The notes under the pieces were generated by a model. That model saw only the letters and a program-made list of their open reading frames with translations, was not told the DNA's origin and did not search any database. Source: Planctomycetota bacterium (GTDB lineage Bacteria > Planctomycetota > UBA1135 > GCA-002686595). Taken from it: 64,000 nt of DNA. The stretch covers positions 22,530 through 86,529 of the forward strand of contig JADLBP010000205.1 of assembly GCA_020847695.1 (NCBI GenBank), in the 5' to 3' direction. This document shows, one piece after another, positions 2,881 through 54,912 of this stretch. The number at the start of each line of letters is the position of its first letter. The first letter of the stretch is position 1. A program made the position numbers and the translations under genes.

Positions 2881-2895
2881 TGGCCGAGCGATTGC
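2881..2895 (+). promoter_or_regulatory. Sigma54-type promoter motif upstream of flgF
   Basis: TGGCCG-AGCGA-TTGC matches TGGCAC-N5-TTGC in the GG/GC dinucleotides and their spacing. It lies in the 258-bp flgE-flgF gap in the correct orientation. The motif ends only 15 nt before the flgF ATG, implying a near-leaderless mRNA. Confidence 0.35.
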
Positions 2896-2910
2896 TCCAC
2901 GGCGGGCGAC

Positions 2911-31503: not shown

Positions 31504-32313
31504 TCAGTTGACGTCCTTGGGGATGGGTTGGATCAAGCGCGCGTCGACCGCCGCCGGGACGTCTCCCGAGAAGCTCGGCTCGCGCGCCCAGGCGCGGGCT
31601 TCGACGCGTTGGTTCACGAACGTGTGCGTGCCGATCAAGTAATCGCGGACCGCGGCAGCGCGGCGGAACGCGAGCTCCGGATCGTTCGCGTGCCCTTCGA
31701 GGATCAGCAGCTGCCCGAAACCCGGGCGCAGGCTCTCGGCGATCAGGTCGAGGTACTTGCGCGCCTTCTCGTCGAGCTCGGCGGCGTCGGCGGCGAAGCG
31801 CGCGATCGACGGCTGCGGCAGCGCGGAGTAGGGACGCAGCGAGGATTCGAGGACCCGTCGCACCTCGTCGATGTTGCGCGCGTCGGCCTTGCCTTCGAGT
31901 AGCTCTTCCTCGGAGATCTCGTCGAGCCCGAAGTTCTTGCGGAACGTGTTGACCGCGTTGAGGTACTGCGCGCCTGACAGCGGCGCGCCCATGCCCTTGC
32001 TCTCGAGCGCGACGACGAACGTGCCGAGTCCGCGGGCGACCAGACCCGCGTCCTGCTTCTTCGCCATCGTCACGAGGATGATGAAGAAGCAGAGGAACAG
32101 GGTCATCATGTCGCCGAACGAGATCAGCCACGGCGGAGGTCCGTGGTGCGAGTGTTCGTGGTGGCCCTTGTGACCGCCATGGCCGCCGTGACCGTGCGCA
32201 CCGCCGCCGTGGCCGCCGCCGTGTTCTCCGTGCTCGCCATGCTCGCCCTGCGCGCCGTGTTCGGCGTGCTCGGCATGTTCGGCGTGGGCTGTGGCGGCGT
32301 GGGAGTCGGACAT
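31504..32313 (-). CDS. MotB-like stator protein paralog with His-rich N-terminal tail
   Basis: TM with the conserved Asp, 'WLISFGDMMTLFLCFFIILV'. OmpA-like C-terminus 'LLILEGHANDPELAFRRAAAVRDYL'. N-terminal about 55 aa: 'HAEHAEHAEHGAQGEHGEHGEHGGGHGGGAHGHGGHGGHKGHHEHSHHG'. Confidence 0.7.
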   Translation of the reverse strand: MSDSHAATAHAEHAEHAEHGAQGEHGEHGEHGGGHGGGAHGHGGHGGHKGHHEHSHHGPPPWLISFGDMMTLFLCFFIILVTMAKKQDAGLVARGLGTFVVALESKGMGAPLSGAQYLNAVNTFRKNFGLDEISEEELLEGKADARNIDEVRRVLESSLRPYSALPQPSIARFAADAAELDEKARKYLDLIAESLRPGFGQLLILEGHANDPELAFRRAAAVRDYLIGTHTFVNQRVEARAWAREPSFSGDVPAAVDARLIQPIPKDVN

Positions 32314-32320
32314 CGCGACC

Positions 32321-33025
32321 TCAGCGCTTCTTCTCGCCGGCGCCGGCCCAGCCGACGGCGTTGGTGCGCGTGACCGCGAGCACTCGCAGTCCGACGCGAC
32401 GGTTGAGCTTGCGGCCGAGCGCCGTGCCTTCGACGGCGCGCAGCTTGTTGGCGCCGAGGCTCGCGATCTGGACTTGATCGGCGGCGAGGTTGCCGGCGTC
32501 GAGCAACGCGCTCGCCGCGGCGCGCGCGCGTTCGAGGCCGAGGCGTTCGGCGTCGTGCGACTCGGCTTCCTTCGTGTCGACGTGACCCTCGACGAGGATC
32601 AGTTGGTCGTGTTTGCCGAGGATCGGCGCGAGCTTCGCGATCTCGCCCTTCAACGCGTCGTTCAGGTCGAACGAGCCCGGCGAGAACGAGCACTCCGAGC
32701 CGAACTCGATCGCAAGCCCGTCGAGCGCCGCGTCGAGCACCATGCGACCGGCCTGGTCTTCCGAGCGGTGCGCGTCGAGGTCCTTCGAGAGGCCGGCGAC
32801 CATCGAGCGGTCGATGTCGATCGGCGGCCCGTAGCCGGTGAGGTTCGGGAACACGCCGCCGCGGCCCTTCAAGAGACCGACGCCGACGGTCTTGATGTCG
32901 CCGGAGTTGGACGTCGAGAACGTCATCATCATCAAGAAGAACGTCACGAGCAGCGAGATCATGTCGCAGTAGCTGACGAGCCAGCCTTCTCCGCCGCCTT
33001 CGGGTTCCGGTGCCTTCTTGACCAC
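32321..33025 (-). CDS. motB: Flagellar stator protein MotB (OmpA-like C-terminal domain)
   Basis: 'GWLVSYCDMISLLVTFFLMMM' is the plug/TM segment with the Asp. 'LILVEGHVDTKEAE...LGLERARAAASALL' and 'NRRVGLRVL' are OmpA-like. Directly follows motA. Confidence 0.85.
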   Translation of the reverse strand: MVKKAPEPEGGGEGWLVSYCDMISLLVTFFLMMMTFSTSNSGDIKTVGVGLLKGRGGVFPNLTGYGPPIDIDRSMVAGLSKDLDAHRSEDQAGRMVLDAALDGLAIEFGSECSFSPGSFDLNDALKGEIAKLAPILGKHDQLILVEGHVDTKEAESHDAERLGLERARAAASALLDAGNLAADQVQIASLGANKLRAVEGTALGRKLNRRVGLRVLAVTRTNAVGWAGAGEKKR

Positions 33026-33031
33026 GGCGAC

Positions 33032-33805
33032 TCAGCTCTTGATCGACTCGCGATCCGCGGGGGCCAGGAAACCCTTGAGCTTCTCCTTGATCAGCTGCGG
33101 CTTCTCGCCGGACTGGATCGCGACGATGCCGGCGATCATCAGCTCGCGCAGCTGCGACTCCTGCTTGTTCCGTTGGTCGAGCTTGCCGGCCATCGGCAGG
33201 AAGAGCATGTTCGCCGCGAACGCGCCGTAGAACGTACCGACGAGCGCACCGGCCATGCCCGCGCCGATCTTCGACGGGTCGGACAAGTTGGAGAGCATCT
33301 GCACGAGACCGATCAGCGTCTCGACCATTCCGAACGCCGGCGCGAACGTACCGAACTGCTCGAGCATCTTCTTGCCGGTCGCGTGGCGCTGCTTGGCGAT
33401 CTCGGCTTCGACTTCGAGGATGTCGCGCACCGTGTCGGCGGAGAAGCCGTCGATCACGAGCTGCATCCCCTTCGCCATGAACTTGTCGTCGACCTGCTTC
33501 AGCTTGCTCTCGAGCGCGAGCAGACCTTCCTTCCGCGCGAGCGTCGCGTAGTCGATGATCCGATCGATTTCCTCGCTCGGCGACGGCAGCTTGTAGAGGA
33601 ACGTGCGCAGGATCACCTTCGCGAGGTGCTTCACCTCTTCGATGCGGAAGTGGATCATCACCGCCGCGAGCGCACCGCCGAACACGACGGCGAACGCGGG
33701 CGGGTGCACGAAGAGCACGAGGCCCGAGAGGCCGCCGCCGTGCATCATCGACCACGTGATCAGACCGAGGCCGAGTGCGAAGCCGAGTACTGTGGAGAGG
33801 TCCAT
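33032..33805 (-). CDS. motA: Flagellar stator protein MotA
   Basis: 257 aa with four TM segments. 'PSKIGAGMAGALVGTFYGAFAANMLFLPMAGKL' is the MotA/TolQ/ExbB channel motif. Confidence 0.9.
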   Translation of the reverse strand: MDLSTVLGFALGLGLITWSMMHGGGLSGLVLFVHPPAFAVVFGGALAAVMIHFRIEEVKHLAKVILRTFLYKLPSPSEEIDRIIDYATLARKEGLLALESKLKQVDDKFMAKGMQLVIDGFSADTVRDILEVEAEIAKQRHATGKKMLEQFGTFAPAFGMVETLIGLVQMLSNLSDPSKIGAGMAGALVGTFYGAFAANMLFLPMAGKLDQRNKQESQLRELMIAGIVAIQSGEKPQLIKEKLKGFLAPADRESIKS

Positions 33806-33934: not shown

Positions 33935-34768
33935 TCACTTCGTCTTCAGCGCGGCGACGGTCTTCGTGTAGGCCTCGGCGAACTCGCGCCATTTGGCCTG
34001 CGGCAGCGCGTCGAGGAGCTCCTTGGCTCGCTCGGGTGACAACGTCGCGAGGATCTTCGACGCTTCCTTCGGCCCGTAGCCGATCAAGCGCGAGGCGAGC
34101 GCATCCGCTTCGCCTTCCTCGAACAAGGCGCCGAGCGCCTTGACGGTCTTCTGCTCTTCGTCGGACTTCTTCTGTCCGTCGCGTTGCACCTCTTCGGCGC
34201 GCGCGGCGAGCTCGGCCTGGAGCTCCTCGAGCTCCGACTTCATCGCGTCGAGCGCCTTCTGGCGATCCTCGATCGCTTCGAGGCGGTCGTCGACGAGCTC
34301 TTCCTTGGTCGAGAGCTCCGCCATCCGGCGATCGAGCTCCTTGTTCTTGCGTTCTACGGTCTCGACGAGCTCGCGCAGCTCGTCGGCGCTGTACGGCGAC
34401 TCGAACTGGAACATGCCGAGCAAGTCGGCTTTCGACTCGCCGTGGCTCGCGCCCTTCGTCGCCGCGTGACCCTTCGGCTCGGCGCCGTGCTCCGGCGTCG
34501 CGTGCGGATCCGCGGTCGCGACCTCGCCGTGCTCGTCCTTCGGAGTGTCGGTCGAATGCTCGTCGCCGGACTCGCTCGCGTGCTCGTCGCCGGCCTGCGG
34601 CTCACCGTGCTCGTCGGTCGCCTCTTCCGGCGGCTTCGGGAAGAGCGAGCCGAACACCGGCAGCGTGTGCAGCGGCACGTGATTCATCTTCGCGAAGCCG
34701 ATGTAGGCGACGGAGAAGAGCAACAGTCCGCCGGCACCGGCGAGCGAGAGCGTGGCGACCTTGTTCAT
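33935..34768 (-). CDS. MotE/FlbB(YlxF)-like flagellar protein (MgtE_N-like C-terminus) with acidic His-containing repeats
   Basis: N-terminal TM, four 'DEH' repeats, a long coiled coil, and C-terminal 'GYGPKEASKILATLSPERAKELLDALP'. Occupies the ylxF slot immediately after fliJ. Confidence 0.55.
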   Translation of the reverse strand: MNKVATLSLAGAGGLLLFSVAYIGFAKMNHVPLHTLPVFGSLFPKPPEEATDEHGEPQAGDEHASESGDEHSTDTPKDEHGEVATADPHATPEHGAEPKGHAATKGASHGESKADLLGMFQFESPYSADELRELVETVERKNKELDRRMAELSTKEELVDDRLEAIEDRQKALDAMKSELEELQAELAARAEEVQRDGQKKSDEEQKTVKALGALFEEGEADALASRLIGYGPKEASKILATLSPERAKELLDALPQAKWREFAEAYTKTVAALKTK

Positions 34769-39743: not shown

Positions 39744-40112
39744 TCAGACGCTCATGCGCATGGTCTCGCGGTAGGCGTCGATCAGCTTGTTGCGGACCTC
39801 CATCGCGAACTTGAAGGAGAGTTCCGCCTGCTTGATCTGCACCGCGAGCTCGTGGAAGTCGCCGACCTTGCCCGCGACCATGTCCGCGGGCAGCTCGTCG
39901 ACGCGATTGATCGAGCCGTTCACCTCTCGCAGGCCCTGCGAGAGGCTGTCGCCGAACGAAGTCGACTTCGGAGCTTGACCGACCTCGAGCCCGCCGGACG
40001 CGAGCGAGTTCGCGACCTCCGAGTCGATGCGCTTCGCGCTTTCGGTCTGCGTGCGCAGCGCCGCCTCGATGGCGGCGCGGGCGAACGAGCTGGATCCGAT
40101 TCCGTCGACCAT
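39744..40112 (-). CDS. fliE: Flagellar hook-basal body protein FliE
   Basis: C-terminal 'DFHELAVQIKQAELSFKFAMEVRNKLIDAYRETMRM' is the FliE signature. Confidence 0.85.
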   Translation of the reverse strand: MVDGIGSSSFARAAIEAALRTQTESAKRIDSEVANSLASGGLEVGQAPKSTSFGDSLSQGLREVNGSINRVDELPADMVAGKVGDFHELAVQIKQAELSFKFAMEVRNKLIDAYRETMRMSV

Positions 40113-40135
40113 GGTTCACCTCGTGGAGAGGACGA

Positions 40136-40573
40136 TCACTGCACCAGGCGCAGCGCGCGCTCGGCCATCGCGACGAAGGACTCCTGCGCGGTCAGGTTGG
40201 CCTCGTACGCGCGTGAGGCCGAGATCAAGTCGACCATCTCGTGCGTCGTGTTGACGTTCGGCATGGTCACGTAGCCCGCGCCGTCCGCGTCCGGGTGGCC
40301 GGGGTTCAGGATGCGTTCCATCGGAGACGCGTAGTCGGGCGTGACGCCGCCGACCTTGACGCCGGTGACCTCGAGCTTGCCGCCTTCGGCGCGCTGGAGC
40401 ATCGGTTCGAACCACACCGACAGCCGGCGGTACGGGACGCCTTCCGGCGTGCGCGTGGTCTCCGCGTTGGCGAGGTTCTTCGCGATGACGTCGAGGCGCG
40501 CGCGTTCCGCGGCGAGGCCGCTGGACGACGCGCGCATTCCGGAGAAGAGATGGGAGATGCCACTCATGATCAA
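40136..40573 (-). CDS. flgC: Flagellar proximal rod protein FlgC
   Basis: 'GLAAERARLDVIAKNLANAETT' and 'PGHPDADGAGYVTMPNVNTTHEMVDLISASRAYEAN'. Confidence 0.9.
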   Translation of the reverse strand: MIMSGISHLFSGMRASSSGLAAERARLDVIAKNLANAETTRTPEGVPYRRLSVWFEPMLQRAEGGKLEVTGVKVGGVTPDYASPMERILNPGHPDADGAGYVTMPNVNTTHEMVDLISASRAYEANLTAQESFVAMAERALRLVQ

Positions 40574-40926
40574 CGAGAGCCTTCCACCGAGCTGCGGATC
40601 AGCTCGAACTTCGCAGCGAGGATCGCCGCGTAGGATTCGTACAGGAGCTTGTTCTCGCGCAGAGCGTTCATCTCGAGCTCGAGGCTCGTGTTGTTGCCGT
40701 CCGCGCGAGCGGGTGTGACGAGGTCGAGCTCGACCTCGGGCGCGACCGTGGAGGGGTCGCGCCCGGATTCGAGCGCGCTCTTCATCGAGTCCTCGAAGCG
40801 CAACATCCTGCGCGTGTACCCCGGCGTGTTGACGTTCGCGATGTTGCCCATGATGACCTCCTGTCGTTGGACGGAGGCCGAGAGCAGCCGCGAGAGCAAG
40901 TCGCCGTTGTCGATGCGCAGGTCCAT
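40570..40926 (-). CDS. flgB: Flagellar proximal rod protein FlgB
   Basis: ATG at 40926, 118 aa. 'RQEVIMGNIANVNTPGY' and 'NNTSLELEMNALRENKLLYE'. The remainder of the 1148-aa track ORF is a frame artefact. Confidence 0.85.
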   Translation of the reverse strand: MDLRIDNGDLLSRLLSASVQRQEVIMGNIANVNTPGYTRRMLRFEDSMKSALESGRDPSTVAPEVELDLVTPARADGNNTSLELEMNALRENKLLYESYAAILAAKFELIRSSVEGSR

Positions 40927-40928
40927 GG

Positions 40929-42311
<1,383 letters not shown>

Positions 42312-42314
42312 CTT

Positions 42315-43481
42315 CTAGCTCTTGGATTGGAAGGGGATGGAGATGCAGAAATCGGCGCCGCCCAGCGGGGCCGGTTGGGGGGAGAGTTCGACGCGACCGC
42401 CGTGCAGCACGGCGATCGTGTTGACCAGTGCGAGGCCGAGGCCGGTGCCGTCGGCGCGCGAGGTGAAGAACGGCTCGAGCACGCGAGCGGCGTGCTCCTT
42501 CGGCACACCCGGGCCGGCATCGGTGACGCGCAAGCAGACTTCGCCGACGCCGACGGTCGCGTCGACGTGGACGGCGCCGCCGTCGGGTTGGGCTTGGATC
42601 GCGTTCGCGATCAGGTTGCGCAGCGCTTGGCGCAGCTTGACGTAGTCGGCGTCGAAGCTCGGCGCCGCGGCGTCGACCGACTGCGTCACGCGCCAACGCT
42701 CGGGCCGTTCGAGGCCGAGCGTCGCTTCGCGGATCGCGTCGGCGACGAGCTCGCAGGCGCCGACGCGCTCGCGGCGGACCGCATCGGTGCGGGCGAGCGT
42801 CAACATGCTCCCGAGCACGCGATCGGCGCGCTGCACGCCTTCGACGATGCGGGCGGCGAGCTCGCGCTCGCGCGAACCCTCGCCGAGGCGCTTCTCGAGC
42901 AACGCCGCGAAGCCTTGGATCGCGTTCATCGGGTTGCGCAGCTCGTGCGCGATCCCGCTGGCGACGTTGCCGAGCGCCGCGAGCTTCTCCTGCGCGTGCA
43001 GCTTCGCGGAGAGGCGCGCGAACTCGGTGCGGTCGTCGACGATCGCGACGGTGCCGACGCGCGCGCCGTGGGATTCGATCGGCGAGCGCTTGCAGGCGAC
43101 GACGCGCGTGCTGCCGTCGGCGCATGCGAGCTCGAGCCCGTCGCCGGCCGCTTCGATTGCGGCGAGTCGCGCCGCGGAGCCGTCGCCGAGCCCGTTCGAG
43201 CCGTCGAGACCGACCAGCTCGCACGCCGCGCGGTTGATCCGGGCGACGCGCCCGTCGCGGTCGCGGACGATAACGCCGCTCGGCAGGGCCTGCAGGATCG
43301 CTTCGAGGTGCCGCGAGAGCTCGTCGAGCTCCGCGACCTTCGACGCGAGCTCGTTCTCGACGCGCTGCGCGCGCCGCTCGATCGCCTGGTAGCTCTCGAT
43401 CAGCCCCGCGCTCACCTCGGCGAAGGAGCGCATGGCCGCCTCGAGCTCGGCGGGCGACATCGGAGCGGTTTCGGCGCGCAT
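42315..43481 (-). CDS. Cytoplasmic PAS-containing sensor histidine kinase (FlrB/FleS-like by context)
   Basis: H-box 'IAHELRNPMNAIQGF', N-box 'ALRNLIANAIQA', 'VTDAGPGVP' and 'GTGLGLALV'. No TM segment. ATG 43481 avoids overlap with the upstream gene (alternative GTG at 43538). Confidence 0.85.
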   Translation of the reverse strand: MRAETAPMSPAELEAAMRSFAEVSAGLIESYQAIERRAQRVENELASKVAELDELSRHLEAILQALPSGVIVRDRDGRVARINRAACELVGLDGSNGLGDGSAARLAAIEAAGDGLELACADGSTRVVACKRSPIESHGARVGTVAIVDDRTEFARLSAKLHAQEKLAALGNVASGIAHELRNPMNAIQGFAALLEKRLGEGSRERELAARIVEGVQRADRVLGSMLTLARTDAVRRERVGACELVADAIREATLGLERPERWRVTQSVDAAAPSFDADYVKLRQALRNLIANAIQAQPDGGAVHVDATVGVGEVCLRVTDAGPGVPKEHAARVLEPFFTSRADGTGLGLALVNTIAVLHGGRVELSPQPAPLGGADFCISIPFQSKS

Positions 43482-43489
43482 GGTGGAGC

Positions 43490-44236
43490 TCACGGCTTCG
43501 CGACCTCCGTGCGGCGCGCTTGGAACTTGGTCTGCCACTCGAGGAAAGACGCGGCTTCCTTCGCGCGCTCGGCGTCCGGTCCGCCTTGCTTGGACTCGCT
43601 CGCTGCGCGATACGCGGCGAGAGCCTCGTCGCGCTTGCCGAGCTTCTCCAGGCAGCGGCCCTTCCAGTAGTTCGAGCTCGGATCCGCCGCCGCGTCGCCG
43701 ATCGCGGCGAGCGCTTCGGCGAAACGATCCTGCTTGTAGTAGGCGCGCACCAGCCGCGCGGTGTCGGCGACGTAGCCGTGCGTCTCGAACGACGCGGGCG
43801 CGTGGCGAGCTTGCGTGTCGCGTGCCGCGGGCTTGTCGCGCTTGGCGGGCGCCGTTTCGTGGCGCGCGTCCGCGACGCCCTGCGGGTCGTCGTCGACGTG
43901 GATCGGCGTCGGCCGAGCGCTCGGCGTCGTGCCGGGGCTCTGGAGGCCGTCGAACTTCGCTTGCAGCGCGTTGAGCTGGTCGCGCAGCTCGTCGCGGCGC
44001 AGATCGCGCTCGACATCGGTGCCGCTCGGCGTCTCGGTGAGGCGCAGCAGGTCCTTCAGCGCGCTCGGGTCCTTCGCCGCGAGACGCTTCTCGACGCCGG
44101 CGAGCTCGTCGATCGCCGCGACGGTCGCGCGCAGCGATTCGTCGAGCGACTTCGCGCCGTCGCCTTGCAGCGCGACGGCGGGCACGAGCAGCACGATCGC
44201 CGCTCCGACGTTGATCGCGAACGAGTGCTTCATCAT
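43490..44236 (-). CDS. Hypothetical secreted protein with coiled coil and C-terminal TPR-like repeats
   Basis: Signal-like 'MMKHSFAINVGAAIVLLVPAVALQ', then a coiled coil, then 'ARLVRAYYKQDRFAEALAAIG...YWKGRCLEKLGKRDEALAAYRAA'. ATGA overlap with the upstream gene. Confidence 0.55.
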   Translation of the reverse strand: MMKHSFAINVGAAIVLLVPAVALQGDGAKSLDESLRATVAAIDELAGVEKRLAAKDPSALKDLLRLTETPSGTDVERDLRRDELRDQLNALQAKFDGLQSPGTTPSARPTPIHVDDDPQGVADARHETAPAKRDKPAARDTQARHAPASFETHGYVADTARLVRAYYKQDRFAEALAAIGDAAADPSSNYWKGRCLEKLGKRDEALAAYRAASESKQGGPDAERAKEAASFLEWQTKFQARRTEVAKP

Positions 44237-45714
44237 CACAGTCGCCCCTGGTAGGCCTCGACGGCGGCGTCGAGACGGTCGTTGGCTTCGTACAGCTCGC
44301 CGGCGAGCACGTAGATCGCGCGACGGGCTTCGGGAGCGTGGAGGTCGGGGATCACGGAGCGCAGCGCGTCGATCGCGGCGTCGACGCCCTTCGCTTCGGC
44401 GAGCGCGCGGGCGTAGAGGCTCGCGACTTCGAGCAGCGCGGGCTCGTCGAGCTCGCGGCGCAGCTCGAAGATCGGCTTGATTACGCCGAGCGCGTCGATC
44501 GGCAGGCCGCCGGCGAGCAGACGGCGCGCGCGGGCGAGCCGCTCGTCGCGCTCTTCGGTCGGGCGGACGAGGTCGTCGAGGCCGAGCGCGGACGCGGCGC
44601 GTTGACGGATCGCGAGCGCGGTGTCGTCGGCGCCGTCGGCGTCCGCGAGACGGCTGATGAACATCGCGCCGAGCTCGTCGCCGGCATCCAGCGCGAGGCG
44701 AGCGGCTTGCGTGAACGCGTTCGCGCGCTCGTGGCCCTCCGTGGCGCGGCCGTAGCGCAGCCAAGCGAGCGAAGCCTGCGCGGGATCCTCGAGCGCCTCG
44801 ACGGTGCGGGCGCGCAGCTCGAGCAGCTCGACTTCGAACTCCTCGCGACGGCCGAGCCTCTCGAGGTAGTCGAGCGTCGCGCGCGCTTCCGGCGCACGAT
44901 CGGCGGCCAGCATCGCGCGCGCCCGGATCAGCTGACGGCGCTGGATCTCGACGGGCTCGGCGGCCGGCTCGTACGTGTCGACGACGTCGAGCATGTAGAA
45001 CGCGTGCTCGTGATCGCCTAGCAGCGCGTGGGCGCGAGCGAGCAGCAACCGCGCGCGGATCTCGTACGGGTGACGGCGATCGAGCCGCAGCAGGTCGGTC
45101 AGGCGCTGCACGACGCTCGCCCACTCGTGTTCGGCGGCGAGCAGCTCGGCCGAGCGCCACAGCGCGTCCGGGAGCTGGTCGGAATCGCGATGGCGCTGGA
45201 TCAGCGTCTCGTAGTGCGCGATCGCGGCCGGCAGGTTGCCGCGCGCTTCCTCGATCCGTGCTTGCGCGAGCTTCGCGGAGACCGCGCCCGGGTGATCCGG
45301 CCAGCGGCGTTGCGCGTTGAGGTACGTCGCGACCGCGAGGTTGCGCAGTTGCTCGACGTCCTCGTGGCGATCCTCGGTCGACACGACGCGCAGCGCGTTC
45401 GTGCGGAGCTCGGCTTGGCAACCGACCGAACCGAGGATGCGCGTCATCACGTCGCGCAGCTCGCGGTCCTCGAGGACGACCGTGACTTCCTGGTCCGCGT
45501 CGATCGCGTCGAGGCCCTCGACGTGCACGCCGAGCTGGATCGCGAGCGAACGCAAGAGCTCGCGCAGGTTCGAGCGCTGCGCGTGCACCGAGCACCACCA
45601 CTCGCCGTCGCGGCGTTCGACGTGGACTTCGTAGCCTTCGGCGGCGACAGGCGCGCCGGGGGCGACCGGCGTGAACGTCGCGGCGAACGCGAGGCAGAGA
45701 GCGAGCAGCTTCAC
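44236..45714 (-). CDS. Hypothetical secreted protein: STN/secretin-N-like small domain plus long TPR-like region
   Basis: GTG start with signal-like 'VKLLALCLAFAATFTPVAPGAPVAA'. 'SNLRELLRSLAIQLGVHVEGL...VTVVLEDRELRDVMTRILGSVG' resembles an STN-type fold. About 380 aa of helical repeats follow. GTGA overlap upstream. Confidence 0.55.
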   Translation of the reverse strand: MKLLALCLAFAATFTPVAPGAPVAAEGYEVHVERRDGEWWCSVHAQRSNLRELLRSLAIQLGVHVEGLDAIDADQEVTVVLEDRELRDVMTRILGSVGCQAELRTNALRVVSTEDRHEDVEQLRNLAVATYLNAQRRWPDHPGAVSAKLAQARIEEARGNLPAAIAHYETLIQRHRDSDQLPDALWRSAELLAAEHEWASVVQRLTDLLRLDRRHPYEIRARLLLARAHALLGDHEHAFYMLDVVDTYEPAAEPVEIQRRQLIRARAMLAADRAPEARATLDYLERLGRREEFEVELLELRARTVEALEDPAQASLAWLRYGRATEGHERANAFTQAARLALDAGDELGAMFISRLADADGADDTALAIRQRAASALGLDDLVRPTEERDERLARARRLLAGGLPIDALGVIKPIFELRRELDEPALLEVASLYARALAEAKGVDAAIDALRSVIPDLHAPEARRAIYVLAGELYEANDRLDAAVEAYQGRL

Positions 45715-46598
45715 TCGTGGCCTCCGCGGTCTTGGGTCTTCGTCTCGGCGGCGTGCACCGCGGCGCCGTCGTGCTCGCTCGGCGCCTTGGCCGCGCCGGA
45801 AGCGACCTGCGCCTCGGCTTGGAGACGGAACGAATCGGCGATCGTGAACGTCGCGCGCGCTTCGAGGTCGTCGCGCCGCGTCGGCTCCCAACGATCCGCG
45901 ACCGCGAGCAGGCCGTAGAGCAAGCGACGCGCGCGCTCGAAGTCGCCGCGCTCGATCGCCTCGTGCGCCGCTTCGAGCGTCTCCTCGCCTTCCGGTCGCA
46001 CGTCGAGTTGCGCGGGGATCCGCGGGTACTCGACGGCCGCCGCGTGGGTCGAGGGGGAGTTCCGATGACCGTTCGGCGCGTCGGGCTCGCCGCCCTCGTC
46101 GATCGCGACCGATCCGCCCGTGCGGGTGCCGAGCGATTGCTGCAGCGTGCTCATCGACTTCCACGTCAGGCCGATCAACGCGAGGTTCGCGATCGCGAAC
46201 AGCGCGAGTGCGGCGACCAAGAGCGGCGAGCTCTTGAGGTCGAACTTGACGCGCGGCGCGGCTTGCGCGGCCGGCGCCGGGGCTTGCGTCGTCGCGGCCG
46301 CGGCGGTCTTGTCGGCGGCGGGCGCGTTCGCCGCGGGCGTCGCGGGAGACGCATCGCCGGCGACGATCGGCGCGGCGGCGGGCGGCGCGACCGTGGTGCC
46401 GGGCGCGGGCCCGAGCACGGCGCTCATCGCTTCTTCGTTGAGGTTGGTGAAGACCTGCGTCGGCGCGGCGGCGGGCGCGATCGTCGCGGAGTCGCCGACG
46501 GCGACCTTGGGCTCGCTCAGCTCGTCGAAGCTGAAGAGGTCTTCCTCTTCGTCGATCGTCGGCTTGTGCGGCGCGGAGCCTTCGTGCGGGTTCGTCAC
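45711..46598 (-). CDS. Hypothetical single-pass membrane protein (acidic N-terminus, Ala/Pro-rich linker, TM, TPR-like C-terminus)
   Basis: 'DEEEDLFSFDELSE', an Ala/Pro-rich tract, TM 'LLVAALALFAIANLALIGL', and C-terminal 'LEAAHEAIERGDFERARRLLYGLL'. High GC3. Confidence 0.5.
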   Translation of the reverse strand: MTNPHEGSAPHKPTIDEEEDLFSFDELSEPKVAVGDSATIAPAAAPTQVFTNLNEEAMSAVLGPAPGTTVAPPAAAPIVAGDASPATPAANAPAADKTAAAATTQAPAPAAQAAPRVKFDLKSSPLLVAALALFAIANLALIGLTWKSMSTLQQSLGTRTGGSVAIDEGGEPDAPNGHRNSPSTHAAAVEYPRIPAQLDVRPEGEETLEAAHEAIERGDFERARRLLYGLLAVADRWEPTRRDDLEARATFTIADSFRLQAEAQVASGAAKAPSEHDGAAVHAAETKTQDRGGHE

Positions 46599-46601
46599 GA
46601 C

Positions 46602-47591
46602 TCAGCTCCAGAGAGCCACTTGAAGGCTCTTCTTGACCGTCGGGCCCGCGAGCATCCGACCGACGCTCACGGCGAGCGCGGGCGAGAGGTTGTAGCTCGG
46701 CTCGTCTTCGCCGCGCAGACCGGCGAGCACTCGCGCGGACATCTCGGGCGTCAGGTAGTCGAGCTCGGAGAGATCGATCGCCTCTTCCTCGTCGAACTGC
46801 ACGCGATACGCGGCGAAGCGCAGCGTGACGCGCGTGCCGCGACCGAGCGCGGCTTCGATGCGCAGGTCCTCGGCGAGCGCCGCGACGCGGGCGAGCCCGC
46901 TGTGCGCGCCGTCGTGGACGTCGGCGAGGCTGCCGACGGCGATGCCGATCGGATCGAGCCCCGAGCCTTGATCGGTGACCGTGACGACGAGCTCGCGCCC
47001 GTCGAGCTCCGCGCGCAGGTCGTACGAGCCCTCGCGCTTCGGGTAGGCGTGACGGAGGACGTTGTCGACGAGTTCGTGCGTCGCGCCGGCGATGCGAGCG
47101 CGCGTCGACGGCCCGAACGACCAGCGCACGAGCTGGGCGAGCAGCTCGCGCATCCCCGCGTCGAGGCCGTCCGCGTTCGCTCCGTAGCGGCGCGTGAACA
47201 CCGCGGCGGACTCGCGCGACGGCAGCGCGGCCTTCGGCGCGGCGCGTTCGACCGAAGCGACGACTTCGTCGAGGCCGCAGGGCTTGGACAGCACGTCGCG
47301 CAAGCCGACGTGCAGCGCAGCGCGGCAATCGTCGAAGCTCGGCGAGTCGGCGAGCAGCACCAACGCGGCGCGCGAGCCGCGGCGCTGGAGCTCGAGCGCG
47401 AGCTCGAGGCCCGGACGGTCGGCGAGCGCCGCGTCGATCACGATCACGTCGTGACCCGCGACCTGGAGCGCGTCGGCGCCGCTCGAGACCGTGGTCACTT
47501 GGTGACCGCGACGGCGCAACGCGGCGCCGACGGCGAGACCGATCGCGGGTTCGGCGAGCGCGAGCAGGACGCGCAACGTGACGGCGCTCAT
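46602..47591 (-). CDS. Receiver domain fused to an RsbW/SpoIIAB-type (anti-sigma Ser kinase-like) GHKL ATPase domain
   Basis: REC-like N-terminus ('VIVID', 'LSKP'). 'THELVDNVLRHAY', 'VTVTDQGSGLD' and 'GTRVTLRF' form a GHKL ATPase without a DHp/H-box. ATGA overlap with the upstream gene. Confidence 0.65.
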   Translation of the reverse strand: MSAVTLRVLLALAEPAIGLAVGAALRRRGHQVTTVSSGADALQVAGHDVIVIDAALADRPGLELALELQRRGSRAALVLLADSPSFDDCRAALHVGLRDVLSKPCGLDEVVASVERAAPKAALPSRESAAVFTRRYGANADGLDAGMRELLAQLVRWSFGPSTRARIAGATHELVDNVLRHAYPKREGSYDLRAELDGRELVVTVTDQGSGLDPIGIAVGSLADVHDGAHSGLARVAALAEDLRIEAALGRGTRVTLRFAAYRVQFDEEEAIDLSELDYLTPEMSARVLAGLRGEDEPSYNLSPALAVSVGRMLAGPTVKKSLQVALWS

Positions 47592-48286
47592 GCAGCCCTC
47601 CCTCGGGCCTGGCAAGCGATGCGGATGCGGACGCAGACCGAGTCGGTCGATGCGACCTCGAATGTTCCTTGCATGCGCAGGACCTCGCGTCGCGCGAGCT
47701 CGAAGCCGAGGCCGAGGCTCGCGTCGTTGTGCGAGCGCGGCGAACGCAGCGCGGCGAGGCGCGAACGGTCGCCGCCGCTGATCACGGAGAACGCCGCCGA
47801 ACCCGCTTCGACGCGCGCTTCGAGCAGCACGTCCTCGGCAGAGCCTTCCAGCGCGACGCGGACGACGTGGGCGAGCGCGGTCGACAGCAGCGCGCCGTCG
47901 ACCAGCAATTGCGGCGCAGCCGCCGGACGCGCGAGCGTGACGCGGACCGCGTCGTGTCGCGCGAGCTTGGCGACCGTGCTCTGCAGGATCTCCTCGAGCG
48001 AGCACTCGAGCGGCATCAACGGACGCGGCGCGGCGTACGCGGCGAGCGCTTCGACGTCGCGCGAGAGCCGCAGCACCTCGGCGAGCGCGCCCGAGAGCGT
48101 CTCGCGGCGCGGATCGTCGGCGCCGAGGTTCTTGGCCAGCGACTCCATCGACGCGCGCAACGCCGCGAGCGGCGTCTTGAAGATGCGCGTGACGGCGAGC
48201 CCGAGCTCCGCCGCTTGCGGAGTCGCTCGTGCCGCGACGGACGAACTTTCGTTCTCGTGCGCGCGTTCGTTCGGGGTGTCGACCAT
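47588..48286 (-). CDS. Histidine-kinase-like protein lacking the phospho-acceptor His (pseudo-HK)
   Basis: The H-box position reads 'AVTRIFKTPLAAL' (Arg in place of His). The N-box region 'LAHVVRVALEGS' lacks Asn. G2-like 'SLGLGFELARREV' is retained. ATG at 48286, 232 aa. Confidence 0.6.
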   Translation of the reverse strand: MVDTPNERAHENESSSVAARATPQAAELGLAVTRIFKTPLAALRASMESLAKNLGADDPRRETLSGALAEVLRLSRDVEALAAYAAPRPLMPLECSLEEILQSTVAKLARHDAVRVTLARPAAAPQLLVDGALLSTALAHVVRVALEGSAEDVLLEARVEAGSAAFSVISGGDRSRLAALRSPRSHNDASLGLGFELARREVLRMQGTFEVASTDSVCVRIRIACQARGRAA

Positions 48287-48312
48287 TCGTTCCGGCGGAC
48301 GGGGGTTCTGGG

Positions 48313-48327
48313 GCAAACCCGTTGCCA
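48313..48327 (-). promoter_or_regulatory. Sigma54-type promoter at the head of the minus-strand flagellar super-operon
   Basis: The minus strand reads TGGCAA-CGGGT-TTGC, with the exact GG-N10-GC spacing of TGGCAC-N5-TTGC. It lies 27 nt upstream of the ATG at 48286, inside a 176-bp intergenic gap. Confidence 0.5.
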
Positions 48328-48462
48328 GGCGCGTGGATCGGCCGGGCGCGGGAATCGCTTGATCGGACGGGACTTCACGGGGGAAGAAACTTCCCAAGTC
48401 CGACTCTCGTTCCGACGTCAGGGCAAAGCGTTCCACTCTCGTCCTCGCGGCTGCGTCGGCGC

Positions 48463-49761
48463 TCAAGCGCCGAGCGAGAGGGCCTGGAGCTTGTTGTAGA
48501 GCGTCGCTCGGTTGATCCCGAGCAGCTCCGCCGCGCGGCTCTTGTTGCCGCCGACCTCGGCGAGCACGCGGCGGATCAACGCTTCCTCGAGCGCGCGCAG
48601 CGAACGATCGCCGAGCGGCAGGAACTCGCCCGCGGGCGCCGCGTCGCTCGCGGTGCGCAGCGCGAGGTCGGGCACGTCGACGAGCTCGTTGCGCGCGAAC
48701 AGCACCGCGCGTTCGACGACGTTCTCGAGCTCGAGCAAGTTGCCCGGCCAACGATGCGTCGCGAGCGCGTCGAGCGCGGCGGGCGTGAACGCGCGCACCG
48801 GCCGGCCGCACGCCGCGGCCTTGCGGCGCAGGACGTCCTGCGCGAGCTCGAGCACGTCCTCGCCGCGCTCGCGCAACGCGGGGACGGGCAGGCTGAGCAC
48901 GTTCAGGCGGTAGAAGAGGTCCTCGCGGAACGCGCCGCGGCCGACTTGCTCCTCGAGTCTGCCGCCGGTCGCCGCGATCACGCGCACGTCGGCGCGGAGC
49001 TCGTCCGTCGCGCCGTTTTGGCGATACGTGCGGTCCTGCAGCAGCCGCAGCAACCGCGCCTGCACCGCGAGCGGCAGGTGATCGACGTCGTCGAGGTAGA
49101 GCGTGCCGCCTTCGGCCGCCGCGAGCAGGCCCGCGCGGGCCCCGAAGAGCGTCTCTTCGAGCGCGGCGGGGTCCGCGGCGGCGACGCGGCAGACGACGAA
49201 CGGAGCAGAGGCTCGCGCCGAGCGTATATGGATCGCGCGCGCGACCCGTTCCTTCTCGACGCCGGTCTCGCCGCGCAGCAGCACCGTGGTGCGCGGCGTG
49301 CGCGCGACGCGTTCGACTTGTTCCAGCACGCGACGCAGCGCGGGCGAGCGACCGATCAGCGCGGTGCCGGCAACGTTTTCTAGCTCGTGGGCGAGCCGCG
49401 CACGCTCGCGCTCGAGGCGGAGCACGCGTTCGGCGCGCTCGGCAGCCGCGAGCACGCGCTCGCGCGAGCAAGGCGTCTCGAGGACGTCGCACGCGCCGCG
49501 TCCGAGCGCCGCGAGCGCGCGTTCGAGCTCCCCGGCGCCGGCGAGCACGACGGTGGCGGTCCCGGTCGCGAGCGCGACGTCCGCGAGCTCGACCGCGGCG
49601 AGCACGAGCTCGGCCCCGTCCTCGGCGAGGCCGCGACGGAGCTCGTTCGCATCGGCGACCGCGCGCACCGAGTGCCCGGGGCGGGCTGCGTCCGCCAGCG
49701 CGCCGAGCAGCCCCTCGCGCACGACGGGGTCGCCGTCGGCGATCAGCACGCGGAAGGTCAT
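48463..49761 (-). CDS. FleQ/FlrA-like NtrC-family regulator with degenerate receiver and degenerate AAA+ domain (no GAFTGA)
   Basis: The pseudo-receiver has 'LVLAAVEL' at the phospho-Asp position. The P-loop is 'GETGVEKE'. 'LFGARAGLLAAAEGGTLYLDD' lacks the GAFTGA loop. 'VRVIAATGG' is retained, as is the Fis HTH 'GGNKSRAAELLGINRATL'. ATG at 49761. Confidence 0.8.
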   Translation of the reverse strand: MTFRVLIADGDPVVREGLLGALADAARPGHSVRAVADANELRRGLAEDGAELVLAAVELADVALATGTATVVLAGAGELERALAALGRGACDVLETPCSRERVLAAAERAERVLRLERERARLAHELENVAGTALIGRSPALRRVLEQVERVARTPRTTVLLRGETGVEKERVARAIHIRSARASAPFVVCRVAAADPAALEETLFGARAGLLAAAEGGTLYLDDVDHLPLAVQARLLRLLQDRTYRQNGATDELRADVRVIAATGGRLEEQVGRGAFREDLFYRLNVLSLPVPALRERGEDVLELAQDVLRRKAAACGRPVRAFTPAALDALATHRWPGNLLELENVVERAVLFARNELVDVPDLALRTASDAAPAGEFLPLGDRSLRALEEALIRRVLAEVGGNKSRAAELLGINRATLYNKLQALSLGA

Positions 49762-49907
49762 GGCCGACTTGTCGACGCGATCGCGCGGAACCCGAAGTTC
49801 TTGCCGACTCGGCCCGGAAGCGCGGACCGCGCCGCGGAAAAAGAGTCCGGAAGACGCCCCGGACGGCCCCGCCGACGCGCTCTCGCCCCGAAAAGCGCGC
49901 GCTTCCC

Positions 49908-49934
49908 TCAAGCGCCCCCGGGGTGCTCCGAGAA
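49908..49934 (+). promoter_or_regulatory. Sigma28-like promoter candidate upstream of the first flagellin gene
   Basis: TCAA-N15-TCCGAGAA (6/8 in the -10 element), 87 nt upstream of the ATG. It shares the 'TCAAGC' -35 context with the motA candidate. Confidence 0.3.
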
Positions 49935-50020
49935 CCCGGCGTGCTCGAGCGAGCCGCAAGGCAAGCCAAGAGCACGTTCAGCTCAGCGACCCCTCAGAAC
50001 CCACCACCCAGGAGCCATCC

Positions 50021-50842
50021 ATGGGACTTCGCGTAAACACGAACATCGCCTCGCTGACCGCCCAGCGCAACCTGGGCCAAGTCAGCACCCGACTGCAGGG
50101 CAACTTCAGTCGACTGTCCTCCGGCCTGCGCATCGCTCGCGCGGCGGACGACGCCGCCGGCCTCGGCATCTCGGAGCGCATGCGCGCTCAGATCCGCTCC
50201 TACACGAGCGCGGAACGCAACGCGCAGGACGGCATCAGTCTCGTTCAGACCGCCGAAGGCGCGCTCAACGAGGTCAACAACATCCTCAGCCGGATGCGCG
50301 AGCTCGCGATCCAAGCCGCCAACGGCACGCTGTCGACGACCGACCGCACGACGATCGACACCGAGTTCCAAGAGCTCTCGAGCGAGATCAGCCGCATCGC
50401 GTCGACCGCCTCGTTCAACGGCGTGACCTTGCTCGACGGCGGAACGACGTCGCTCGACATCCAAGCCGGCATCAACTCGGGCGAGATCATCACGATCACG
50501 CTGCAGGACACGACGACCACGAGCCTCGGGATCAACGGTCTCGACGTCACGTCGGCGACCAACGCGGTCGCGACGCTCTCGACGCTCGACACCGCGATCG
50601 ACTCGGTCGTCTCGGCGCGCGGCGGGCTCGGCTCGGCGCAGAACCGCCTGCTGTCCTCGATCGCGAGCATCACCAACACACGCGAGAACCTGTCTGCCGC
50701 CGAGAGCCGCATCCGCGACGTGGACGTCGCGACGGAGACGGCGGACCTGACGCGGAACTCGATCCTGCAGCAAGCCGCAGTCGCGGTGCTCGGCCAAGCC
50801 AACGTGCAGCCGCAGCTCGCTCTGCAGCTCCTGCAGGGATGA
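50021..50842 (+). CDS. fliC: Flagellin (short, D0/D1-only type), copy 1
   Basis: '[18 protein letters not shown]', '[17 protein letters not shown]' and C-terminal '[47 protein letters not shown]'. 273 aa. Confidence 0.95.
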   Translation: MGLRVNTNIASLTAQRNLGQVSTRLQGNFSRLSSGLRIARAADDAAGLGISERMRAQIRSYTSAERNAQDGISLVQTAEGALNEVNNILSRMRELAIQAANGTLSTTDRTTIDTEFQELSSEISRIASTASFNGVTLLDGGTTSLDIQAGINSGEIITITLQDTTTTSLGINGLDVTSATNAVATLSTLDTAIDSVVSARGGLGSAQNRLLSSIASITNTRENLSAAESRIRDVDVATETADLTRNSILQQAAVAVLGQANVQPQLALQLLQG

Positions 50843-53568: not shown

Positions 53569-54912
53569 TCACCAGCGCCAACCGTTCGGTCCGTCCGCGT
53601 CGGCGGGATCGAACCAGCTGTCGAGCAGCTCGAACCAGTTCTGCACGACGCCGTCGCCGAACTCCGCGCCGTCGGCGCACCACGCGAGCCGCCCGAAGCC
53701 GCGCTTGCTCGCCGGTTGCACCGCGCTGTACCACGCGAGGCGCTGCCAGTCGGTCGATCCGTCGGACTCGCGCGCGCCGTCGGGCAACACGATCGAAGCT
53801 CCGGACGAATCGCGGACGAAGCTCTCGGGTGACTGCACCGCGAACGACGCCGTCACCAGCCCGTCGACCGCCGCGGCGAGCGCGCGAGCGCGTTGACGCG
53901 TCGTCTCGCTGAACAGCGGCTCGGCGGCGATGCGTCGCGCGAGATCGTGGGCGTCGAAGTACGGCATCGAGCCCCACGCGTCCTCGCCGGCGGGGAAGTA
54001 GTCGAGCACGCCGCGTCGGTCGTCGCTGCCGCGCAGCGCTTCGAGCGGCGCTCGCTCGCGCTCGTTCGCGATCGACACCGCGAGTGCGTCGGTCGCGGAC
54101 TTGACCTCGCCGGCGCGCGTGAGATCGAAACACGCCCAGGCCTCGAAGCCGAGGTCGACGCCGCGCTCGGCCCATTGCTTGCGCCCGGCGGCGATCGACT
54201 CGAGCGCGAGCCCGCCGAACGCGAGCGCGTCGACGTCACCCGAGCCGAGCGCTCGCCCGAGCGCGCCGAAGAGCAGGTCGTAGCGCCACGGCGCGGAGAC
54301 CGACGCCGAAGCGACCATCGCGTGCGCGCCGAAGCGTTCGGGACCGGGCCTCAACTCGTACGCGAGCTCGACCGAGCCCATCGAGCACACGTCGAAGCCG
54401 ATGAAGTCGACCGATTCCTCCGGACCGAGCTCTGCGGTGAGCTCGCCGGGGAACAGCGGATCGCCGAAGCTGGATTCGTCGAACGCGAACGCGCGACCGT
54501 CGCCGTGGCTGTAGAAGACGAGCGCGGTGTGTCGCGCCGGGCAGAGTGCCTTGCCGAAGCGCACGAAGTCGCGCACGAGCTTCGGATCGCCGGTGTTCGC
54601 CTCCCAACGTCCGCGTAGGGTCGCGGGGAGCGCGTCGCCGCCTTCGAGACGCTCGAAGCGCTCGCGACCGAGTCGGAAGAGGCGGGTGTCGGCGAAATCC
54701 TCGCCCAGCGCGCTCTCGCCCTTCGCCCAGCGCGGGCTGCGATCGACCAGCGCCACGAGCTCGATCCCCGCGGTGCCCGCGAGCCCGACTTGCATCGCGG
54801 CGAGGTCGCCGATCAGCGTCTCCTCGCTCGAGTTGTCGCCCGCGCCGTAGACGAGCACGGTCCATTCGGCGGGCGCGGGCGGCGGAGAAACGGGAGCTTG
54901 CAACGGGATCAT
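53569..54912 (-). CDS. Clostripain-family (peptidase C11) cysteine protease homolog
   Basis: 'WTVLVYGAGDNSSEE', 'LVFYSHGDG' (catalytic His context) and 'DFIGFDVCSMGSVELAYEL' (catalytic Cys context). 447 aa. No N-terminal signal peptide evident. Confidence 0.8.
   Translation of the reverse strand: MIPLQAPVSPPPAPAEWTVLVYGAGDNSSEETLIGDLAAMQVGLAGTAGIELVALVDRSPRWAKGESALGEDFADTRLFRLGRERFERLEGGDALPATLRGRWEANTGDPKLVRDFVRFGKALCPARHTALVFYSHGDGRAFAFDESSFGDPLFPGELTAELGPEESVDFIGFDVCSMGSVELAYELRPGPERFGAHAMVASASVSAPWRYDLLFGALGRALGSGDVDALAFGGLALESIAAGRKQWAERGVDLGFEAWACFDLTRAGEVKSATDALAVSIANERERAPLEALRGSDDRRGVLDYFPAGEDAWGSMPYFDAHDLARRIAAEPLFSETTRQRARALAAAVDGLVTASFAVQSPESFVRDSSGASIVLPDGARESDGSTDWQRLAWYSAVQPASKRGFGRLAWCADGAEFGDGVVQNWFELLDSWFDPADADGPNGWRW

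Follow-up and report, generated by a model that had tools for sequence, protein, structure and literature searches.

A flagellum-linked trio of envelope proteins in Planctomycetota: a candidate trans-envelope coupling module

The trio and the closest described systems

How lineage-specific periplasmic additions to the flagellar motor arise outside the model enterics is an active question. The closest described proteins to the ones considered here are PflA and PflB. PflA has 17 tetratricopeptide repeats (TPRs) and a length of 747-774 aa in the homolog table of a preprint, according to which the PflA and PflB families are not conserved in sequence, type IV pilus parts recur in flagellar scaffolds, and TPR proteins encoded near flagellar genes are proposed to be widespread equivalents of PflA (PMC11870540). 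We analyzed a 64,000-nucleotide stretch of DNA from a Planctomycetota bacterium (GenBank assembly GCA_020847695.1, contig JADLBP010000205.1, positions 22,530 to 86,529 of the forward strand), hereafter the window, which contains three consecutive minus-strand genes, g1, g2 and g3, between a signaling gene pair and the gene for an FlrB-like kinase. A first-pass annotation made from the sequence alone had placed the three genes at this position, which we confirm, and had suggested that their products could build a periplasmic motor scaffold. We tentatively favor another reading, in which the trio is a trans-envelope coupling module that tethers RH, the REC-HATPase_c_2 protein encoded immediately upstream of g1, and links the state of the periplasm to FlrBC and the sigma-54 flagellar hierarchy.

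The G+C content of the window is ~70%, so that long spurious open reading frames are plentiful, and it is third-position G+C that picks out g1, g2 and g3 as three real genes (G+C of 0.90-0.91 at third codon positions and 0.46-0.56 at second positions). The g1 gene (45711..46598, minus strand, GTG start) encodes a 295-aa bitopic inner-membrane protein with a predicted cytoplasmic N terminus. The g2 gene (44236..45714, minus strand), whose GTG start overlaps the g1 stop, encodes a 492-aa periplasmic protein, and g3 (43490..44236, minus strand) a 248-aa protein that has a hydrophobic, putatively anchoring N terminus and ends in a TPR region, with helical segments and a Pro-rich linker between the two.

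In architecture g2 loosely resembles PflA, and g1 and g3 loosely resemble PflB. Both g2 and PflA combine a signal peptide with a small N-terminal domain derived from PilQ, a secretin of type IV pili, and with a long TPR array, the array of g2 being periplasmic and generic rather than PflA-specific; PflB, like g1 and g3, has an N-terminal transmembrane (TM) segment followed by a periplasmic TPR region. FlcA of Borrelia, CC_2058 of Caulobacter, PflA/PflB and the trio all contain TPRs, are located in the periplasm or anchored in the membrane, and have their genes among those of the flagellum; the FlgY-like partner gene in the operon of the trio is a further point in common. Table S5 of the preprint lists TPR proteins of 493 aa and 196 aa in Phycisphaera mikurensis (PMC11870540), which may be relatives of g2 and g1.

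These likenesses bear on the possibility that the trio is a purely structural periplasmic motor scaffold, in which g2 would form PflA-like spokes or a ring, and g1 and g3 a PflB-like rim or pillar, positioning MotA/MotB and possibly standing on an FlgY-type E-ring. Such a role would suit the exclusive association of the family with flagellar loci, the presence in the same operon of genes for an FlgY/MotE/FlbB-like protein, MotA, two MotB proteins and a FliL-like protein, and the proposal that PflA equivalents are widespread near flagellar genes (PMC11870540). It would also suit the fact that the only other TPR proteins among the flagellar genes of the window are two multi-TM proteins that are not PflA-like. 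There are also differences from the Pfl system. In PflA the N-terminal domain is an AMIN-like beta-sandwich, after which comes a loop that wraps PflB, whereas that of g2 is of the N0/STN type and has no AMIN match, and g2 has ~13 TPRs in its 492 aa compared with the 17 of PflA. In PflB (820 aa) an antiparallel beta-pair locks a large TPR domain; g1 and g3 have a TM segment or anchor and only one or two TPR-like units, tiny by comparison. A further difference is the conserved cytoplasmic motif of g1. Gene order of pfl genes is not conserved across taxa, whereas the trio is fixed among regulators, away from motAB, fliL and flgY.

Neither the Pfam and NCBIfam matches at E<=1 nor the PDB-profile and Foldseek searches included PflA, PflB, FlgT, FlgP or MotX/Y, the presence of PflA/PflB chains in the searched copy of the PDB being unconfirmed. 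The earlier impression that no known flagellar family is represented in the trio was therefore upheld, and its comparison with the motor proteins by remote homology and structure gave no match. What survives of the scaffold proposal is the link to the flagellum and a loose parallel with PflA/PflB; no homology to any of these proteins was found. A passive role would, moreover, leave unexplained both the multiple copies of the cytoplasmic motif in g1 and the co-variation of that motif with RH. We regard a purely structural scaffold as a close rival of the coupling module, slightly less likely than the latter.

A second set of described systems connects the envelope with gene regulation or secretion. 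In the systems where they are known, STN and N0 domains join a component on the outer side to an inner-membrane partner that spans the membrane once; examples are FecA-FecR and the contacts of secretin N0 domains with PilP, GspC or PrgH. FecA/PupA/FpvA-FecR signaling has in common with the trio a periplasmic STN domain together with a single-pass protein of N-in topology, whose cytoplasmic N terminus engages a transcription-control protein (for the trio this is our proposal), and in both systems the genes lie beside the regulators that they would control. Unlike FecA-FecR, the trio has no TonB-dependent barrel or plug, no FecR/anti-sigma domain and no extracytoplasmic function (ECF) sigma factor in g1-g3 or the adjacent genes; its output would instead run through a REC-HATPase_c_2 protein and a two-component system of the sigma-54 type, and g2 adds a TPR superhelix. 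The g2 N-terminal domain is matched best, in structure and in profile, by the N0 domains of the secretins PilQ, GspD and InvG, and the TPR pilotins PilF/PilW have the TPR fold in common with g2. In contrast to secretins and pilotins, however, g2 has no secretin core, no N1-N3 domains and no conserved lipobox, and it fuses N0 and TPR parts in one soluble periplasmic protein.

Distribution, gene order and transcription

Word-index searches returned 11-15 relatives per protein (15 for g1 and 14 for g3), the named ones all from metagenome-assembled genomes (MAGs) labeled 'Planctomycetes bacterium'. That the family is as small as this was disproved by an exhaustive hidden Markov model (HMM) search, which gave at least 141 clusters of g2 at 50% identity (E<=1e-30), nearly all of them full length (470-545 aa), in four large and several small clades. 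A pattern scan of GTDB found four species-level genomes with the family. The named carriers are all MAGs of uncultured Planctomycetota, with the taxonomy taken from the MAG names, and the other members are encoded on untyped metagenome contigs.

Gene context was obtained in every major clade, and 29 more loci were reached through the upstream RH protein, so that the census is biased to lineages reachable through the RH motif (individual loci are labeled L001, L003, L011 and so on). There were 40 loci with a g2 homolog, as judged by HMM and BLAST annotation, corresponding to ~30 distinct proteins once duplicate contigs are discounted. The order at each of the 40 is (FleQ)-(X)-(RH)-g1-g2-g3-FlrB-FlrC-flgB-flgC-fliE-fliF-fliG, where brackets denote optional genes and X encodes a pseudo-histidine kinase. 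The g3 gene is followed by FlrB at every one of the 26 loci with enough downstream DNA, and synteny is retained down to 21-27% identity in g2. Homologs outside flagellar loci, which the first-pass annotation had named as a finding that would refute its proposal, were encountered at none of the 40 loci. The constant order identifies the trio as a block inside an otherwise widespread fleQ-fleS/flrB-fleR/flrC cassette. In the literature searched we found no description of the family, of an N0/STN-TPR fusion, of the g1 motif, or of a fixed place between a HATPase_c_2 protein and FlrB.

The same census, with no locus outside a flagellar cluster, comes close to refuting the idea that g1-g3 are general envelope proteins, either Tol-Pal/CpoB-like or engaged in cell-wall maintenance, that hitch-hike in a flagellar operon. 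The idea has some basis in the layout of g3, which has an export signal, a helical region and a C-terminal TPR part in ~250 aa, as do CpoB and YbgF, and in the fact that CpoB is the best PDB sequence match of g2 (E=1.6e-4). Yet the NCBIfam scores for these families are far below the cutoffs (12.1 against 383 bits for g3 with CpoB, and 24.3 against 90.1 for g2 with YbgF), the context is flagellar rather than tol-pal, with no tol or pal genes nearby, and the N-terminal segment of g3 suggests a membrane anchor. We consider a general envelope function very improbable.

The trio is tightly packed with the genes on either side. Overlapping stop and start codons had been reported as GTGA at the g1/g2 junction and ATGA at the g2/g3 junction; the former is present, but the latter is TGATG, a 1-nt overlap with an ATG start, which becomes GTGA if an upstream GTG is used. 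The g3/FlrB junction is a further GTGA overlap, the RH gene stops 3 nt before g1, and stop and start codons overlap or abut all the way from X through flgC, which suggests coupled, roughly stoichiometric synthesis. Twenty-three minus-strand genes, from X (48286) to fliN (29379) and the next multi-TM TPR gene (27360-29336), follow one another with gaps of -11 to +129 nt. In the stretch that was scanned (40000-50200) we found no minus-strand terminator-like site in the block and no sigma-70-like promoter.

X and the gene for the FleQ-like activator are separated by 177 nt, and this gap contains a sigma-54-type -24/-12 element, TGGCAACGGGTTTGCC (48312..48327, minus strand), 26 nt upstream of X. 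Equivalent elements are present at L001 and L003, and none was found at more distant loci with the pattern used, so that a plausible element was found only in the clade of the window itself; the number of sigma-54-type matches across the window is not above chance. Together, the overlapping or abutting genes, the absence of an internal terminator or sigma-70 promoter and the sigma-54-type element upstream of the block make it likely that the trio is co-transcribed with flrBC and flgB within the sigma-54 hierarchy, in agreement with what the first-pass annotation had supposed.

Architecture of the trio and its relation to RH

The g2 protein starts with a Sec-type signal peptide. The Cys of this signal peptide is not kept among homologs, so that no lipobox is conserved, and the possibility that g2 is a lipoprotein was rejected for this reason. 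Residues 26-112 (45379..45639, minus strand) form an N-terminal domain with the fold beta-hairpin plus beta-alpha-beta-beta-alpha-beta-beta. The AlphaFold2 (AF2) model of full-length g2 has a mean predicted local distance difference test (pLDDT) score of 85.7, and the N-terminal domain modeled alone scores 90.6. In Foldseek the domain matched the N0 domains of PilQ, InvG, GspD, LspD, EscC and MxiD, as well as the signaling domains of PupA and FpvA and a FecR-like anti-sigma protein, with a TM score of ~0.55 and a root-mean-square deviation of ~2.8 A over 74 residues; for PilQ, InvG, GspD, LspD, PupA and FpvA the probability was ~1.0 and the deviation 2.7-2.9 A over 72-74 residues. An earlier profile built from 10 N-domain sequences had no match in the PDB; a profile of 49 sequences matched the N0 domain of PilQ (E=2e-3). 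Pfam STN (PF07660) was matched by 23 of the 49 family members (best E=1.4e-4), the g2 of the window itself falling below Pfam significance, and FecR_C was weakly matched by one of the 49. The secretin-N0/STN-like identity of the domain, first proposed from the sequence alone, is confirmed.

The rest of g2 is an all-alpha TPR superhelix (residues 120-488; 44251..45357, minus strand) of ~26 helices forming ~13 TPR-like hairpins, as assigned by DSSP on the AF2 model; the signal peptide and TPR-like repeats recognized in the first pass are thus both present. Pfam TPR matches are below threshold, and there is neither a Pfam match to Secretin nor a secretin pore domain. With full-length g2, the PDB profile search and the best 50 Foldseek matches gave nothing beyond TPR proteins of a generic kind (OGT, APC subunits, designed CTPRs, CpoB and BamD among them) and are therefore uninformative on function. 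The last nine residues of g2, AVEAYQGRL (44239-44265, minus strand), are among the most conserved, G490 being invariant in 111 sequences. Part of this conservation may operate at the nucleotide level, because the Q-G-R codons hold the AGGGG ribosome-binding site of g3.

Two helical segments come after the hydrophobic N terminus of g3, and the Pro-rich linker separates them from a C-terminal TPR domain with two repeats (residues 150-238). The Pfam TPR_2 score of g3 is 25.1 bits, just under the cutoff, and a g3 profile matched consensus TPR in the PDB with E=1e-11. The third protein had previously been described as secreted, coiled-coil and TPR-containing, and of this description it is the TPR part that we confirm. 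No part of g3 is better conserved than the hydrophobic segment at its N terminus, in which K3, N9 and A13-L23 are invariant down to 36% overall identity; for this reason the segment may stay in place as a membrane anchor instead of being cleaved off as a signal. Comparison by hhalign detected no paralogy among g1, g2 and g3 beyond TPR-level similarity, and sub-threshold TPR matches were all that Pfam and NCBIfam returned for the three proteins.

The combination of TPR and N0 belongs to the domain vocabulary of secretins and their pilotins, and it raises the possibility of an assembly or placement factor: either a pilotin- or chaperone-like TPR complex for the rod, the P- and L-rings or the stators, comparable to PilF/PilW, or a polar landmark of the FimV/HubP/SflA type. 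The TPR regions of the trio have weak NCBIfam similarity to those of PorW/SprE, BamD and CpoB. It may be added that flhF and flhG are not in the window and that the acidic cytoplasmic tether of g1 resembles those of hub proteins. The pilotin, BamD and CpoB similarities, however, are generic to TPRs and far below the family cutoffs, and the trio is without LysM, AMIN or any other peptidoglycan-binding domain. There is no link to FlgH, FlgI and FlgA, which are encoded on the other strand ~37 kb away, and an assembly factor would leave the fixed place of the trio between RH and FlrB unaccounted for. We therefore view this alternative as improbable.

The N-terminal region of g1 contains an acidic-aromatic motif, IDEEEDLFSFDEL (residues 15-27; 46518..46556, minus strand), with the consensus (D/E)(D/E)DLFxF, in which E17, D20, L21, F22 and F24 are invariant in the alignment with homologs. 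A second small motif, EEAMxAVLGPAP, comes after it, and a low-complexity linker rich in Ala and Pro, which makes a tether of ~80 aa, connects the motifs to the TM segment (residues 124-146; 46161..46229, minus strand; Kyte-Doolittle 19-residue windows >1.6), conserved as ANLALIGLTWKSMSTLQ. Because there is more positive charge on the N-terminal side of the TM segment, the positive-inside rule places the N terminus in the cytoplasm. Beyond the membrane and a variable linker there is a periplasmic TPR-like helical hairpin (residues 201-260; 45819..45998, minus strand) with the consensus ...ERGDFxxARRLLYGLLAVADRW...EARAxFxIAD. It has no Pfam match and is the sole region of g1 kept in every clade, L011 included. 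The initial description of a single-pass protein with an acidic cytoplasmic N terminus, an Ala/Pro linker and a TPR-like C terminus was accurate.

The (D/E)(D/E)DLFxF motif is kept across clades in one to three copies per g1 protein, and is duplicated or triplicated in the g1 proteins of L015, L028, L030, L032 and L036 (with coordinates 9019-9400 in L030, 5332-5510 in L036 and 2070-2340 in L032). The occurrence of two or three copies in several g1 proteins supports its interpretation as a short linear binding motif, and an invariant, multi-copy motif on an Ala/Pro tether would be typical of a recruitment motif.

The candidate partner is RH (46602..47591, minus strand), in which Pfam and alignment delimit a REC domain, a HATPase_c_2 domain with the RsbW-type kinase fold, and a C-terminal extension of ~65 aa. 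The acidic pocket of the REC domain has AE in place of DD. The C-terminal extension is conserved (IDLSELDYLTPE...LSPALAVSVGRMLAG...ALWS) and has no Pfam match. RH adjoins g1 on the upstream side in all clades but L019, and all 29 metagenomic relatives of RH are encoded in the same flagellar context. Both the motif of g1 and the extension of RH occur at no fewer than 25 distinct loci from at least three major clades. At L011 the g1 motif is absent and RH has no extension; at L019 the motif is degenerate (AIDDLLDVEV, on a short arm) and the RH gene is absent. A mixed case, with the motif but not the extension or the reverse, was not seen among the loci compared. This pattern is a hint of a direct interaction between the g1 motif and the RH extension.

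The other regulators of the block are soluble as well, there being no membrane segments in FlrB, RH or X. The optional X gene (47588..48286, minus strand), which is the first after the sigma-54-type element, encodes a 232-aa pseudo-histidine kinase, in which Arg replaces the His of the H-box (TRIFKTPL), the ATPase domain is degenerate, and the matches to HisKA and HATPase_c are weak. X is absent at L011, L012 and L019; of RH, the REC domain is absent at L012 and, as noted, the entire gene at L019. Downstream of the trio, the FlrB-like gene (42315..43493, minus strand), whose GTG start overlaps the g3 stop, encodes a soluble kinase with PAS, HisKA and HATPase_c domains according to Pfam, and the FlrC-like gene (40929..42311, minus strand) a REC protein with a sigma-54 activator domain, followed by flgB, flgC and fliE-J.

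A coupling model and its weighing

According to the reading that we tentatively favor, g1, g2 and g3 would form one inner-membrane and periplasmic complex belonging to the flagellar system of this Planctomycetota clade. The TPR superhelix of g2 would bind a periplasmic ligand, most plausibly a component of the basal body or the cell wall, and its N0/STN domain would contact the periplasmic TPR parts of the membrane-anchored g1 and g3 proteins. The long disordered cytoplasmic arm of g1, with its one to three (D/E)DLFxF motifs, would tether RH, probably through the C-terminal extension of the latter, and the state of the periplasm would then modulate the soluble FlrB-FlrC pair encoded directly downstream. 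This coupling model draws support from the precise insertion of the trio in the fleQ/flrB-flrC cassette, kept over deep divergence, from the translational coupling to regulators on both sides, and from the linking role of STN/N0 domains in combination with the solubility of FlrB, RH and X. Since the trio is always placed between RH and FlrB and the g1 motif co-varies with RH, a signaling or tethering role is at least as well indicated as a passive scaffold. The activity of FlrB-type kinases has been tied to basal-body formation (PMC7064773), and the signal that they perceive is still called unknown (PMC12607845). A more specific version, in which the trio, RH and the pseudo-kinase X constitute a dedicated trans-envelope input module for FlrBC, with g2 as an N0/STN-TPR receptor for the condition of the basal body or envelope and g1 as the single-pass protein that passes it on by capturing a cytoplasmic kinase-like regulator with its (D/E)DLFxF motifs, is less likely than not.

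Several considerations weigh against coupling. The TPR proteins from flagellar loci that have been studied (PflA, PflB, FlcA and MotX) are structural scaffolds. Every contact in the model is inferred, and the co-variation of motif and extension consists of two independent losses only, at L011 and L019. The persistence of the trio at L019 without RH means that tethering of RH cannot be its only function. The fixed gene order could be inertia in a very stable 23-gene operon. With an FlgY-like gene in the operon, and with the other flagellar TPR proteins of the window all multi-TM, g2 could itself be a spoke, and PflA too joins a PilQ-derived domain to TPRs (PMC11870540). Finally, the characterized kinases FlgS, FlrB and FleS sense FliF, FliG and the export apparatus from the cytoplasmic face, for which no periplasmic sensor is needed (PMC7064773). 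The coupling and scaffold models are not exclusive, however, and a complex docked on the motor could also recruit a regulator.

The remainder of the window contains a near-complete flagellar set: flgD, E, F, G, A, H, I, J, N, K and L, fliE-J, motA, two motB genes, a fliL-like gene, fliM, fliN, four flagellin genes, fliD and fliS. Directly after fliJ, a gene at 33935-34768 (minus strand) encodes a 277-aa protein in which an N-terminal TM segment, an acidic and His-rich linker and a coiled coil precede an MgtE_N-like ARM domain at the C terminus (sub-threshold in Pfam, E=5e-3). It is probably the FlgY/MotE/FlbB (E-ring) homolog. In proteins of the FlgY/MotE/FlbB group an MgtE_N-type ARM domain comes after a long helix, and the gene adjoins fliJ or fliK. 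Like them, g3 combines a signal for export or membrane insertion with a long helix and a small repeat domain of alpha-helices, and it was also considered for this role; it was rejected because its repeat domain scores as TPR, with no MgtE_N match at E<=1, and because the protein encoded after fliJ is the better candidate. The stator genes are at 31504-33805 (minus strand), where one MotA gene is followed by two MotB paralogs and then by the gene for the 270-aa FliL-like protein; the second MotB (31504-32313) has a His/Gly-rich N-terminal extension of ~45 aa.

The two multi-TM TPR proteins (13265-15358, plus strand, and 27360-29336, minus strand) have a multi-TM N-terminal domain and canonical C-terminal TPRs, and their genes flank flagellar operons, one after a GNAT gene and the other after fliN. 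The N-terminal domain of the 13265-15358 protein matches PMT_2, and the two may have flagellar or envelope proteins as substrates of a glycosyltransferase activity. As candidates for PflA these proteins, of 658 and 697 aa, were rejected on account of their multi-TM N-terminal domains and the PMT_2 match of the 697-aa protein. Upstream of flgF by 30 nt there is a sigma-54-type element, TGGCCGAGCGATTGCT (2881-2896, plus strand), a candidate FlrC-dependent promoter of the flgF-G-A-H-I-J block. A clostripain-family (peptidase C11) gene (53569-54858, minus strand) is located between flagellin genes on the opposite strand. After fliS, four signaling genes (58936-63429, minus strand) encode a REC-HD_5 protein, a REC-HDOD protein, a histidine kinase and a FIST-domain protein, and may represent further motility regulators.

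The family described here is a conserved, flagellum-exclusive envelope module whose building blocks, N0 and TPR, are those of type IV pili and secretins, and which is set in a regulatory cassette. If it is a scaffold, it would be a third independent solution beside the Campylobacter and Vibrio rings, in a phylum for which we found no motor description in the literature searched. If it is a sensor, it would open a way to study how sigma-54 regulators are informed of assembly in the periplasm. Should the trio together with RH and X prove to be an input module, it would be the first described periplasmic sensor for kinases of the FlrB/FleS/FlgS type, and a new use of the STN signaling domain outside TonB-dependent transducers and secretins. 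The short cytoplasmic motif, its partner domain and the defined gene block give rise to testable predictions about how these Planctomycetota may couple their envelope to the control of flagellar genes.

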